From the NCBI GenBank assembly GCA_951406725.2, contig OX597832.1, forward strand, positions 17,298,001-17,362,000: 64,000 bases of DNA. The letters are read 5' to 3'. Origin of the DNA: Octopus vulgaris (lineage: Eukaryota). The notes beneath the pieces were generated by a model that was given only the letters and a program-made list of their open reading frames with translations, was not told the DNA's origin and did no database searches. Numbering within the stretch: position 1 is the stretch's first letter; every line of letters begins with the position of its first letter. Both the position numbers and the translations under genes were made by a program. Of this stretch, positions 7,760 through 51,469 are shown in pieces.

Positions 7760-8140
7760 TGTGTGTGTGTGTGTGTGTTTGGGCGTCTGTGTTTGTCCAC
7801 CCACCATCGCTTGACAACCGATGTTGGTGTGGTTACGTCCGCGTAGCGTAGCAGTTCGACAAAAGATGCCCGATATAATAAGTAATAAGCTTACAAAGAA
7901 TAAGTCCTGGGGTCGATTTGTTCACCTAAAAGGTGGTGCTCCAACATAGCCACAGTCAAATGACTGAAATAAGGAACAAAAAAGAATAAAATAATATATA
8001 TATATATTCGGCAAAAGAGATGATAGATTAAGTACTGGGCTTACAAAGAATAAGTCCCGGGGTCGATTTGCTCGACTAAAGGCGGTGCTCCAGCATGGCC
8101 GCAGTCAAATGACTGAAACAAGTAAAAGAGTAAAAGAGTA
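7760..8140 (+). mobile_element. SINE family A, two tandem 3' fragments (7760-7990 and 8008-8140)
   Basis: Both end in ggtgctcca-cat-gcc-cagtcaaatgactgaaa; the second has a gtaaaaga tail repeat. Confidence 0.85.
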
Positions 8141-8309
8141 AATATATAATAGTTATCGCCCATATGGCATTCTTATAAAAATAAGAAAAAAGCTGTCCGC
8201 TTATTAGCTCCATGAGGCCATCGCCTTAAGTTAGCTATTTGATACACAAACTGTATCCATATAACCTTCGAACAAGGGAGGTCAGTCGCTCCACACTACT
8301 TGACCGGCA

Positions 8310-8351
8310 GCTACAGACGCGTTTCGGGGTATTGCCCCTTTTCAATGCAGC
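8310..8351 (-). ncRNA. Minimal type I hammerhead ribozyme, U3:A8 core variant (copy 1)
   Basis: Reverse complement of the motif at 8867-8908. Confidence 0.75.
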
Positions 8352-8671
8352 GTAGCCAGCCAGTAGGTGTCGCTTCCGACAATCTCTGTTCGATGGTTTT
8401 ATTTACCTAGTTTCGGTGGAATATATCCACTTGTTTTCAATAATAGAAATATTAAAATAACTAAGTGTCTCTAAAAGAGAACAGCGGCAGCGTTCCCGGA
8501 AAATAATAGTTATCGCCATACTAATATGGCATTCTTATAAAAATAAGAAAAAAGCTGTCCGCTTATTAGCTCCATGAGGCCATCGCCATAAGTTAGCTAT
8601 TTGATACACAAACTGTATCCATATAACCTTTGAACAAGGGAGGTCAGTCGCTCCACACTACTTGACCGGCA

Positions 8672-8713
8672 GCTACAGACGCGTTTCGGGGTATTGCCCC
8701 TTTTCAATGCAGC
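8672..8713 (-). ncRNA. Minimal type I hammerhead ribozyme, U3:A8 core variant (copy 2)
   Basis: Reverse complement of the motif at 8867-8908. Confidence 0.75.
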
Positions 8714-8866
8714 GTAGCCAGCGTAGCCAGCCAGTAGGTGTCGCTTCCGAGACTTAGTTATTTTAATATTTCTATTATTGAAAACAAGTGGATATATTCC
8801 ACCGAAACTAGGTAAATAAAACCATCGAACAGAGATTGTCGGAAGCGACACCTACTGGCTGGCTAC

Positions 8867-8908
8867 GCTGCATTGAAAAGGGGCAATACCCCGAAACGCG
8901 TCTGTAGC
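8867..8908 (+). ncRNA. Minimal type I hammerhead ribozyme, U3:A8 core variant (copy 3)
   Basis: GCTGCA TTGAAAA GGGG caata CCCC GAAA CGCG TC TGTAGC: helix I GCTGCA/TGTAGC, helix II 4 GC pairs, palindromic helix III, predicted cut after GUC at 8902. Confidence 0.78.
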
Positions 8909-9142
8909 TGCCGGTCAAGTAGTGTGGAGCGACTGACCTCCCTTGTTCGAAGGTTATATGGATACAGTTTGTGTATCAAATAGCTAACTTAAGGCGATGG
9001 CCTCATGGAGCTAATAAGCGGACAGCTTTTTTCTTATTTTTATAAGAATGCCATATTAGTATGGCGATAACTATTATTTTCCGAGAACGCTGCCGCTGTT
9101 CTCTTTTAGAGAGACTTAGTTATTTTAATATTTCTTTTATAG

Positions 9143-9182
<40 letters not shown>

Positions 9183-34525: not shown

Positions 34526-35432
<907 letters not shown>

Positions 35433-36007
35433 CGAAATTATAAGCAACAGCGACAACGTGGTAACGAAGCAAGTGGCGTTGATTACGATAATGGCTCTTG
35501 TTATATTTGTCGTTGGTGACAAAGAAAATAAGGATGAAATACCGAAAAAGAAAAACCTCAGAAGGGATAATATCTATGTGAAAAAAAAAAAAAAGAAAAA
35601 CAGAGCAAAAATGAAAAAGTAAAAAGATAAAACAAGTTAAGTGTTAATAATACAGTTACGAGTAGAATGAATACACAGAAAACAAACGAGAAAGAATTCA
35701 AAAATAATGAATGCAACAACATCCACATCAGCCATCAAACATTGTGCCGTCCATGAGAAGGTTTCACCTTTTAATTCACAATTCGGATGTGTACATGTAT
35801 ATATTTACATAATGAACATGGCAGTCATAGAGGCTGACATGTATATTCGTAACTGTGTTTTTGTTCTTTGTTTGTATCTTTCTACTGTGTTTTTTTTTGT
35901 TTTGTTTTCATTTTATCCATGACGTGTCACAGCCTGTATGGATATTAGACGATCGTATCGCTCCCGTATATATTTTGGAGCGATATGATATATATATATA
36001 TATATAT

Positions 36008-39587: not shown

Positions 39588-40938
39588 GGAAAAATAAGGA
39601 AACTGTTGACAATGCATAGAATGCACCACCCTAAGGCAGATACAGAACGACTCTATCTGCCAAGAAAAGAGGGAGGCCGTGGTCTTTTGCAACTGGCAAT
39701 AACAATGGAGATTGCTACAATTGGCCTAGACACCTACCTGAAAAACTCTGAGGACTGGATATTAAAACTTGCCTCAAAACATGAAAACAAGAAAGCATCA
39801 TACTCAGTCACAAAACAGGCAAAGGAATATCTAAGTGAATTCCGAATACAACCAATTTCGGAAATAGAGATAGATATACAAGAAACAAGCACAGAAAAAG
39901 CTAGGCGCATGAAAACCCGTGCCAAAACTGCGGCCTTAGATATTCTGAATAATAAATGGCAAGAAAAACCTCTCTATGGCAAATACCCAAAGAGAGCGAA
40001 TAATGCAGATATCGACAAATCCCTGACCCATCAATGGCTAATGGCCTCTGGCTTAAAATCTGAAACAGAGGGGTTTATCATAGCAGCTCAAGATCAATGC
40101 CTACCAACAAGAAACTACCAGGCCAACATATTAAAGATCAGAAGCAGTCCAACGTGTCGTGTATGCAAGCAACAAAATGAGACCATTGACCATGTGGTCT
40201 CCAAGTGCAGTCTTCTAGCGCCTACAGAGTATCTCAACAGGCACGATAGAGCTGCACAATATATTCACTGGGTAATCTGTAAAAACCTGGATTTGCCCCA
40301 TGAAAAAAACTGGTGGGAACACAAACCACCCCCAGTGCTTGAAAATGACCACATCTCACTCCTCTGGAACTTCACCATTCAAACTGACAGGAAGATAGAT
40401 GCAAATAGGCCAGACATCATATTGAAAGACTTCAAACAAAGAACATGCCTCCTCATTGATATGACTGTCCCAATCGATATAAACGTATCTGTCAAGACCT
40501 ACCAAAAACTGAGCAAATATAAAGATCTTGAAATAGAAATCAGCAAAATGTGGAAGCTGAAGACTAAAACAACACCTGTTGTCATAGGTGCCCTGGGAAT
40601 GATAGCAAAAGGGGCTGATAGCTACCTAACTCAGATACCAGGAAACCCAAAAATGGCAGAAGTTCAAAAGATAGTGCTCATGGGAACTGCTCATATCCTA
40701 CGCAAAATACTCTCTATGTAATCTCAAGGTTTAAAACAAACATAATTTTCGGTTTAAAAAAAAAAAAAAAAAACCTTTTTTTTTTTTTAGACATTCATTA
40801 GTACAACATCCCCACTTCCCAAATATATGGCACACTAGGCATAACAATAACATGAACTTCCAACCCTGTTGTCTTTTGAGGTCTCTGGGTGAGACTTGGA
40901 GCCAACTTGTACAAATATAAAGCAAAAGTCAAACATAG
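39588..40938 (+). mobile_element. 5'-truncated R4/Dong-like non-LTR retrotransposon (family 1) in (TAA)n
   Basis: Open frame starts at the microsatellite junction; ~217 bp 3' UTR ends directly in (AAT)n. Confidence 0.92.
39606..40721 (+). CDS. C-terminal part of retrotransposon ORF: RT thumb, CCHC knuckle, restriction-like endonuclease
   Basis: LYLPRKEGGRGL, CRVC...ETIDHVVSKC, RHD, NRPDIILKD...LIDMTVP, KLSKY; no stops over 371 aa. Confidence 0.92.
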   Translation: MTMHRMHHPKADTERLYLPRKEGGRGLLQLAITMEIATIGLDTYLKNSEDWILKLASKHENKKASYSVTKQAKEYLSEFRIQPISEIEIDIQETSTEKARRMKTRAKTAALDILNNKWQEKPLYGKYPKRANNADIDKSLTHQWLMASGLKSETEGFIIAAQDQCLPTRNYQANILKIRSSPTCRVCKQQNETIDHVVSKCSLLAPTEYLNRHDRAAQYIHWVICKNLDLPHEKNWWEHKPPPVLENDHISLLWNFTIQTDRKIDANRPDIILKDFKQRTCLLIDMTVPIDINVSVKTYQKLSKYKDLEIEISKMWKLKTKTTPVVIGALGMIAKGADSYLTQIPGNPKMAEVQKIVLMGTAHILRKILSM

Positions 40939-50178: not shown

Positions 50179-51469
50179 CGAGGGACGTTCAATAAGTAAT
50201 GCCCCTGACCCATTTGCAGTTATTTGATCTAGCTGAAATTTTGCATGTGCAATCATTTATATCTCTATAGAGTAAGTGGCAAATGACAGCTCTGAACTAA
50301 TTGTGGTTTCTGATTTACAGGTGTTTGAACTGAGTCAAGTGTGAAATGGAGCCTGTTGAGTGTCGAGCAGTGATCCGGTTTTTGTATTTGAAAGGACGCA
50401 CACCACGGGAGACTTTTGATGAAATGAAAGTAACTTATGGTGATGATGCCCCATCATATGACCTTGTAAAACGCTGGCATCGTGAATTCAAACATGGTCG
50501 GAACTATGTGGAAACAGCTCCCAGATCTGGTCGCCTCCTTCTGCCATTGATGAGGCATCTGTCCGTCAAGTTGAGACTGCCATTTTGGAAGATCGACGCA
50601 TAATTATTCGCCAAATAGCCCATGAGGTCAAGATTAGTACCGGGTCAGTGGAAACTATCATTCATGACCATTTGCATATGCAAAAGGTGTCTGCCAGATG
50701 GATTCCCAGGTTGTTCACGCCTTTCCAGAAGCAAGAACGCGTCGAGTGCTCGAGGATGAATTTGGAGATGTGCCAAGAAGATGAGTCAAAATTTTTCAAA
50801 AGACTGATTACACAGGATGAAACCTGGGTCCATCACGATGATCCAGAGACCAAAGCCCAGTCAATGCAGTGGAAGCACCGTGACCCATCCCCTCCAAAGA
50901 AGGCAAGGGTGCAGCCCTCCGCTGTCAAGATCATGCTCACAGTCTTCTGGGACCAGGACAGAGTAGTGATGACAGATTTCCTGGCAAAGGGTACCACAAT
51001 TACAGGAGCCTATTATGCTTCACTTTTGAGGAAATTAAGAGAAGTTATCAAATTCAAGAGGCGGGGCAAGATCAGCAAAAGCATCCTCCTCCTGCAGGAC
51101 AACGCTCCGGTTCACAACTCGCTTGTCGCCAGATCAGAAGCACAGGCGTATGGCTATGAACTCCTCCCCCATCCCCCTACTTTCCTGACCTTGCACCCTC
51201 TGATTTTCACCTCTTCCCAGTCATGAAGTTGTTTTTGAAAGGAAAGCGTTTCCCAGATGATGCAGCCTTGATTTCTGAAGTCACGTTCAGGTTGGAGGAC
51301 CAAGCTAGGGTCTTCTACAGAAACGGTCTCAAGAGCTGCATCAAACGATGGGAGAAATGCGTAACTCTGGGTGGTTCCTATGTAGAAAAAGACTAATAAC
51401 TGTGCCAGGTTTCGTTGCTCTACTGCTATGGGAAGTGGGCCAGGGGCATTACATATTGAACGCCCCTCG
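50179..51469 (+). mobile_element. Full-length mariner transposon (1291 bp, probably irritans subfamily)
   Basis: 34 bp TIRs (3 mismatches) cgagggacgttcaataagtaatgcccctgaccca; TA duplication at 50177-50178 and 51470-51471. Confidence 0.97.
50346..51397 (+). pseudogene. Mariner DD34D transposase, frameshifted
   Basis: WIPRLFT, ITQDETWVH, LLQDNAPVH, frameshifted PDLAPSDFHLF, CVTLGGSYVEKD*. Confidence 0.95.

Follow-up and report, generated by a model that had tools for sequence, protein, structure and literature searches.

A young, non-autonomous Penelope-type retrozyme of Octopus vulgaris with a variant hammerhead core and two fixed end sites

The insertion described here lies in a 64,000-nt stretch of Octopus vulgaris contig OX597832.1 (hereafter, the window) and is a real, young, non-autonomous Penelope-type retrozyme with a variant ribozyme core, whose insertion rule sharpens a mechanism that is still open. 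Its family is built of a 362-nt unit, and most mapped insertions consist of two arms that point outwards and end at two fixed sites of that unit. A likely explanation for the layout is that a dimer of the RT-endonuclease of Penelope elements (PLEs) primes twice on one, probably circular, RNA. The kind of element is known and each part of the mechanism has been foreshadowed in print; added here are the counted asymmetry of the ends, the variants shared between arms, the stagger of the target cuts, and the way in which the arms are joined.

Layout of the insertion and its hammerhead motif

The structure at 8146-9140 is far beyond chance and comprises a left arm on the minus strand followed by a right arm on the plus strand. 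All unit positions refer to the copy at 8751-9112, which is 362 nt long and numbered 1-362. The features of the locus are as follows:

8137..8148, no strand: left copy of the target-site duplication, 12 bp AGTAAATATATA, at the 3' tail of a SINE-like repeat
8146..8750, minus strand: left arm, 605 nt, ribozyme-sense on this strand, unit 89/91-362 and then 1-327
8146, minus strand: 3' end of the left arm, at site A
8749..8750, no strand: arm junction, a 2-nt microhomology joining the 5' ends of both arms
8751..9140, plus strand: right arm, 390 nt, the full 362-nt unit (8751-9112) and then unit 1-28
9070..9080, plus strand: site A in the right arm, CUAUUAU, unit 321-327, the putative first start of reverse transcription
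9134..9140, plus strand: site B, unit 22-28, the putative second start, 63 nt downstream of site A
9140, plus strand: 3' end of the right arm, at site B
9141..9152, no strand: right copy of the target-site duplication, 12 bp AGTAAATATATA, running into (TA)n

The sense strand is plus in 8751-9140 and minus in 8146-8750, so the arms point outwards; since they meet at their 5' ends, both 3' ends face the flanks. A sequence-only reading of this DNA had described the copies in 8146-8750 as forward ones; the copies are there, but this segment is antisense to the ribozyme. The direct repeat that it saw at 8146/8503 likewise exists, whereas its period of 357 bp is only apparent: the outer copy has lost 5 nt near 8161, and the true period is 362. 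The same reading was right about the break at 8750 and the inverted copy that starts at 8749/8751, the 308-nt inverted arms being 100% complementary, about the 23-mer present at both 8751 and 9113, and about the lack of coding capacity, as no ORF at the locus exceeds 84 aa and the longer among them span the junction or the flanks. It placed the right end too early, at 9135: site B reads CUAUUAU in the family and carries one substitution at this locus, at 9136, and the actual end lies at 9140, where the 12-bp repeat begins. The last 3 nt of the left duplication copy (8137-8148) match the element end too, and the inner copy of the left arm contains a 9-nt duplication at 8710-8727, beside the hammerhead motif.

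The SINE-like repeat at whose tail the retrozyme was inserted occupies 7780-8145, has its 150-nt 3' part duplicated, and is related to more than 10 pieces within the window. Elsewhere in the window, the segments 34650-35436, 39588-40718, and 50486-51223 include a 376-bp two-copy repeat made of AAG runs, a 377-aa frame that presumably resembles the C-terminal part of a LINE, and a 246-aa frame that we take to resemble a mariner transposase.

The unit carries a U3-A8 variant of the type I hammerhead with compensatory changes, which its sequence predicts to be a self-cutting motif. The following motifs and parts were assigned:

8310..8351, minus strand: hammerhead motif in the outer unit of the left arm, identical in sequence to 8867-8908
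8672..8713, minus strand: hammerhead motif in the inner unit of the left arm, adjoined by the 9-nt duplication
8867..8908, plus strand: type I hammerhead, U3-A8 variant, predicted cut after 8902
8867-8872/8903-8908, plus strand: stem I, 6 bp
8873-8879, plus strand: core UUGAAAA
8880-8883/8889-8892, plus strand: stem II, 4 bp

One hammerhead per monomer, as had been claimed, holds for each unit and gives three motifs at the locus as a whole; the cut that had been predicted after 8902 falls at the correct position (GUC). The core follows the pattern U3 U4 G5 A6 N7 A8 A9, in which N7 is A, U, C, or G, and therefore reads UUGANAA in place of the canonical C3-G8 core CUGANGA. The 3' part is GAAAC-GC-GUC with a palindromic loop 3 that occurs in three forms, ACGCGU, ACAUGU, and ACUAGU. 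Stem I is GCUGCA:UGUAGC here, and GCUACA:UGUAGC and UCUGCA:UGCAGA in sister subfamilies. An alternative core of the form CUG-CAUU-GA with insertions was dropped, because CUG pairs in stem I and covaries in the sisters. Among 19 sequences, which are related, 98% of cells are paired and three pairs are changed on both sides, against 23-54% in slid controls; the shuffles of this pairing test give no probability. The hammerhead fold lies at most 1.1 kcal/mol from the best fold, and the complete unit folds far more strongly than its shuffles (z -7.5, 0/100). Rfam gave no match at gathering and no hammerhead family among 15 weak matches; microRNA-like Rfam matches, below gathering, were traced to (TA)n and the inverted junction and rejected.

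PLE hammerhead variants have reportedly been seen in one study to cleave as dimers, which may bear on the U3-A8 core. The U3-A8 variant was described for the Cercyon PLEs of Schistosoma, in a study that treats a palindromic loop 3 as a mark of dimer cleavage (PMC4209133). The octopus motif has in common with Cercyon both the replacement of C3-G8 by U3-A8 and the palindromic loop 3 implying dimer cleavage; however, Cercyon has a minimal motif in PLE repeats, whereas the retrozyme has a 6-bp stem I, a 4-bp stem II, and tandem units (PMC4209133). An anole PLE could do without its ribozyme in vitro, and homology was not required for priming (PMC11167929).

The family, its end sites and a candidate helper

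The locus is one insertion of a young, abundant, dispersed, non-coding 362-nt repeat. The 35-nt ribozyme core has 768 exact copies genome-wide (control 0) and 2061 matches when relaxed (control 0), and divergence between loci is 1.48%, in agreement with the earlier description of a recent and mobile retrozyme-like monomer. Scaling from the first 100 listed matches, which represent 63 loci, we estimate that the exact-core subfamily has approximately 480 loci. Unit length and ends are conserved in older sister subfamilies of ~80% and ~85% identity. Each locus holds from 1 to 8 units, head to tail, with no body. Of the features by which retrozymes are recognized, three are found: a non-coding unit of 362 nt in tandem copies (the range being 150-450 nt), one type I hammerhead per unit, here the U3-A8 variant missed by Rfam models, and duplications of more than 4 bp with no LTR, primer-binding site, or polypurine tract, as judged from sites A and B and the 12-bp duplication. 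Several features of non-autonomous PLEs are found as well, namely a partial tandem plus an inverted 5'-truncated copy, a tail at one end, and AT-rich or (TA)n targets. We are highly confident that the repeat is a non-autonomous, PLE-mobilised retrozyme.

Most sequence words of the unit were also found in sequencing runs of six organisms, and the unit is covered by contigs from runs presumed to be RNA, a kind of contig that reveals no ring, start, or level. In two runs labelled as other organisms (X17 and X18), the unit forms a clean 392-nt closed contig with few variants, which would arise equally from a ring or from trace tandem DNA.

The genome-wide search and end mapping that had been suggested for the monomer revealed a dispersed family with ends fixed at sites A and B. 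We mapped 100 distinct loci: 40 best matches to a full-length query, which are biased to long arms (4 duplicate rows were dropped), and 60 loci from core matches, which were taken in order on contigs C1 and C2 and not chosen for length (one listed locus was omitted). Seventy-five of these loci are two-armed, 24 are single-armed, and 1 is double. Their outer ends lie at site A (unit 320-333, mostly 327) or at site B (unit 21-30, mostly 28), both of which read CUAUUAU. The 75 two-armed loci comprise 64 A+B, 1 B+B, and no A+A combinations, the other 10 having one atypical end; three of these atypical ends, including that in this window, are B ends with a substitution or a small deletion. The core-match sample shows the same distribution (n = 45 two-armed loci; 38 A+B, 0 same-site, 7 atypical), as does the 85%-identical sister subfamily, in which 26 two-armed clusters among 44 loci (one locus without a match) include 22 A+B, 0 same-site, and 4 atypical cases.

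Pure (TA)n is present on both sides at 39 of the 64 A+B loci, and the remainder are mostly AT-rich. Among the 25 A+B loci that lack pure TA flanks, 12 have an 11-14-nt direct repeat, exactly 12 nt in 8 of them, several of these repeats being TA-rich and hence weak; the others show no repeat (10 loci), only 5-6 nt (2 loci), or a long TA run (1 locus). Microhomology of at least 2 nt occurs at 44 of 51 non-gapped junctions (17% expected), and 24 of all 75 junctions contain extra bases. Two loci (L021:1060-1377 and L020) have, at the inner junction, repeated 89-nt pieces and a four-arm arrangement that suggest repeated re-priming before the join.

The lengths of the two arms are uncorrelated (rho -0.17, n = 38). 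Their 5' ends are concentrated where the long ribozyme-bearing hairpin has its 3' foot, at unit 186-204, in both the main set (31/150 vs. 7.9 expected) and the sister subfamily (14/72 vs. 3.8). A second cluster at unit 148-162, near the cut site, has 18 of 150 ends against 6.2 expected, in an interval picked after seeing the data, and was not replicated in the sister subfamily (5/72 vs. 3.0). Eight 5' ends scored at unit 1 in the sister subfamily proved to be an edge effect of the query, and junction patterns for 5' ends at unit 91, which are blind to microhomology joins, gave 0 matches (control 0).

A search for the mobilising enzyme scored 150 of 6136 GIY-YIG candidates, of which 148 match, many in 781-aa open frames. 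These frames are intact, contain RT and GIY-YIG domains, and have a CxxxxCxxC motif before the nuclease; this motif belongs to the Neptune and Nematis clades and has been tentatively linked to (TA)n targeting (PMC8557442). The candidate helper (L133:1244-6460; G000:C6:133.343-133.348 Mb) is an active element with two frames, an upstream frame of 479 aa without a Pfam match and a second one of 781 aa with RT and GIY-YIG. Its terminal repeat holds the motif UUGAUAA-stem II-GAAACAUGU, also found in the core of the retrozyme unit, within a U3-A8 hammerhead-like motif whose AU stem I is weak and whose internal repeats vary in length. This terminal repeat has two end sites, separated by ~40 nt and bordered by (TA)n, and the two-armed loci observed each have the A+B combination (2/2). 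The tail lengths differ, 63 nt in the retrozyme vs. ~40 nt in the helper, and the retrozyme unit and the helper repeat do not align beyond the ribozyme motif; thus, the helper is a candidate only.

Template, priming and competing explanations

Opposite arms share a variant seen in at most 3 loci at 14 of 74 loci, against the 0.42 predicted by rare-variant sharing between arms of different loci, within the subfamily too; the arms in this window share such a variant at unit 44. Divergence is 0.54% between opposite arms and 0.50% within the same arm, compared with the 1.48% between loci. The shared variants show a common source locus at least, not a single molecule, and gene conversion between the inverted arms could add to them. 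Of 15 variants that are private to one locus and occur there in at least two copies, 12 are found in every covering copy, a pattern that favours a ring, although same-arm sharing could also stem from later DNA-level expansion. Ten rare variants (3 private and 7 in 2-3 loci) are held by only some of the units, which fits multimeric or dimer-ring templates, and 115 private variants in one copy only are read as later mutations. Reverse transcription past unit length, as proposed earlier for this locus, is supported. In favour of a ring, 40 of 128 arms pass the cut site at least two times, with a maximum of 5; single crossings are uninformative, since loci were chosen for an intact core. Taken together, the A+B ends and the shared rare mutations indicate that a single RNA, probably circular, likely served as the template of each insertion. 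One RNA molecule would be the simplest reading of the one-of-each rule, and the two arms probably do come from the same molecule; that this molecule was a ring rather than an uncut multimer is a conclusion toward which we only lean.

The inversion had previously been ascribed to a template switch. The fixed end sites used once each, the arms of which neither is nested in the other, here and at 12 of 64 loci, and the microhomology join are explained better by two primings, and we consider it very likely that there were two, one per site. The single-armed loci, about a quarter of those mapped, speak against this scheme. In the proposed mechanism, tandem copies would be transcribed, and the dimer-dependent U3-A8 hammerhead would cut the transcripts to monomers, which would close into rings. 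A GIY-YIG endonuclease would nick both strands of an AT-rich target ~12 nt apart, as the duplication suggests. Each 3' end would then prime at one CUAUUAU, the two being 63 nt apart on the same RNA, with site A used by one protomer and site B by its partner; the ends are observed, and the priming is deduced from them. Copying by both enzymes would proceed with strand displacement, in many cases beyond a full turn, and would preferentially halt where the long ribozyme hairpin has its 3' foot. Finally, the cDNA ends would anneal via 2-6 nt of microhomology, as seen at the junctions, followed by a presumed repair through fill-in.

A bolder version of this scheme can be put forward only tentatively. 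One ring on an asymmetric Penelope RT-endonuclease dimer, with active sites fixed to A and B, would undergo coordinated double rolling-circle reverse transcription, in which the two strands of a break with a 12-nt stagger are both extended around it; the rule would cover the pseudo-LTRs, inverted copies, and one-sided tails of all PLEs, and a young Tx1 LINE would have abandoned U1-like sites and would target nothing but the DNA copies of the ring.

The same double priming could instead use a linear uncut multimer, or two transcripts of the same source, on an asymmetric dimer, with the ring as a by-product, if any. We regard this as unlikely. The ten rare variants confined to a subset of units speak for such a template, whereas private variants sit mostly in all units (12/15). 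Arrays of 5-8 units exist as possible sources, and the anole PLE worked with unprocessed RNA in vitro (PMC11167929); yet a linear-only cycle would be expected to shorten arrays in each round, and the youngest copies include arms that make 3-5 turns. The left arm in this window can end exactly at unit 91, but no pile-up of 5' ends is found at unit 88-95 (0/72 in the sister subfamily and 4/150 among two-arm ends). A linear cut RNA would also give 5' ends near the cut site, where the excess noted above did not replicate.

A single priming followed by a template switch or fold-back onto the new cDNA, with the endonuclease cutting the second end at the other site, appears improbable. It would explain the shared variants at once, the tail of PLEs has been ascribed to endonuclease-mediated resolution (PMC8557442), and the 12 non-nested loci are somewhat below the 18.1 ± 3.3 expected for independent arms. 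However, fold-back needs one arm to lie within the other, which is impossible at the 12 of 64 loci and in this window (605 vs. 390 nt), and A and B arms are alike in length range and either may be the longer. An L1-type collision would predict B arms that stop at site A, and only 1 of 64 does so.

That long Penelope copies, heavily truncated at the 5' end, left the unit behind as an ordinary pseudo-LTR is very improbable; the end signature and ribozyme core shared with a PLE of the same genome would favour this reading, which is already largely refuted. The units stand head to tail up to 8 times without a body, and the unit, which on that reading would occur only as the terminus of a long Penelope element, is joined to a PLE ORF at none of the 100 mapped loci; matches to PLE ORFs at six of them are unrelated neighbours with 28-62% identity. 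No long element carrying the unit was found among the scored GIY-YIG loci, the sister-family loci, and the matches of a relaxed U3-A8 pattern (14 matches, control 2), and the only long insert found inside the unit, a 5.4-kb sequence considered as a partner, is a Tx1 LINE with its own duplication. That the locus is an artefact of assembly, or a satellite that arose at the DNA level and was inverted by chance, is scarcely credible even in these microsatellite-rich surroundings, since the copies differ by private indels, the 12-bp duplication flanks the locus, and the recurrence of the layout with different junctions, at 101 two-armed loci on many contigs, argues against assembly error.

Relation to known elements and a LINE inside the unit

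In the twin priming of L1, both nicked strands prime, and the inverted 5' part is joined by microhomology; the internal position at which the second primer acts varies, and the two arms correspond to separate stretches of the RNA. The retrozyme differs in that neither site varies and its arms cover overlapping stretches, the overlap often exceeding one unit. In the literature searched, with most subscription papers outside it, we found no paper on twin priming by Penelope elements, no newer one on PLE initiation, and none with the mechanism proposed here.

Non-LTR retrozymes are tandem hammerhead units of 150-450 nt that are expressed as rings (PMC7229834), and retrozymes have been argued to be non-autonomous PLE derivatives (bioRxiv 10.64898/2026.07.22.740005). 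The octopus repeat is similar to the metazoan retrozymes of coral, mussel, and axolotl in its low GC content, one type I hammerhead per unit, dispersed monomers to multimers, and duplications of more than 4 bp, and its 362-nt unit is like the 350-390 bp units of mussel (PMC7229834); vertebrate retrozymes provide a further comparison set (bioRxiv 10.64898/2026.07.22.740005). It is unlike the metazoan retrozymes in its U3-A8 core, and the ring is here deduced from the insertions. The octopus family is typically inserted as two inverted arms whose ends are fixed and differ from each other, whereas the word 'inverted' is absent from the main text of PMC7229834, and no such insertions are described in the parts compared of bioRxiv 10.64898/2026.07.22.740005.

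The EN+ PLEs have an inverted 5' copy and a 30-40-bp tail, often at one end only (PMC8557442). In the Poseidon element PAc of the anole, two internal RT start sites define the tail, and the element, for which a dimer is predicted, nicks and extends both target strands (PMC11167929). The retrozyme shares with these PLEs the inverted 5'-truncated copy, the one-end tail, the AT/(TA)n targets, and the two tail-defining start sites (PMC8557442, PMC11167929). Unlike them, it has no ORF, its tail is 63 nt long, its asymmetry is near-absolute and counted, and both of its arms carry the same rare variants. The ~12-bp duplication has a 1-5 nt match to the RNA ends here, whereas PAc priming was reported as non-homologous (PMC11167929).

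The origin of tandem and inverted PLE copies and of the one-sided tail is named as an open question (PMC8557442), and the steps after priming were left unvalidated (PMC11167929). A 362-nt substrate with hundreds of near-identical insertions makes the counted rules, namely one end of each kind, shared variants, a ~12-bp stagger, and a microhomology join, testable with purified enzyme. It would also lend direct support to the reverse transcription of retrozyme rings, as proposed previously (PMC4209133).

The unit is itself a target. At three loci it contains a 5.36-kb LINE with an endonuclease, RT, zf-RVT, and a CCHC knuckle, which we call Tx1-type from its layout and targeting rather than from a clade tree. 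The 3' ends of this LINE lie at unit 91 in 20 of 30 fetched copies (16 sites) and in 21 of 29 exact 3'-end matches. Its insertions show a 17-bp duplication of unit 91-107, in different retrozyme subfamilies, and the LINE is once 5'-truncated with the duplication intact and once present as a five-copy tandem. The target sites in this window and the young copies are as follows:

8841..8857, plus strand: unoccupied 17-bp Tx1 target, unit 91-107
8361-8377 and 8732-8748, minus strand: unoccupied 17-bp Tx1 targets, unit 91-107
L186:2482-7839 (G000:C15:61.019-61.024 Mb), G000:C2:73.04-73.07 Mb, L195-L213 and L215: young Tx1-type LINE copies

The 20 unit-91 rows constitute one branch (97/94) within older Tx1 copies, which are followed by ATAC-type starts, one of them a U1 gene; older relatives occupy U1-like starts (L221), and one full-length copy of the older kind (L241) has an endonuclease with 95% identity. 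Target-specific Tx1 LINEs include Tx1L in Tx1D, Keno in U2, and Tx1-Mar (PMC4494074). The octopus LINE is like them in using a fixed site in a repeat and in its tandem re-insertion (PMC4494074), and unlike them in that its target is a retrozyme and its older relatives lie at U1-like starts. No account of Tx1 in retrozymes was found in the literature searched, which left most subscription papers outside.

At one locus (L228; G000:C14:42.98 Mb), Tx1 sequence is present in the B arm and absent from the A arm, which is awkward for adjacent start sites on one RNA. There and at L232, a retrozyme arm truncated inside Tx1 is joined to an inverted arm without Tx1, and the Penelope machinery possibly copied a composite RNA.
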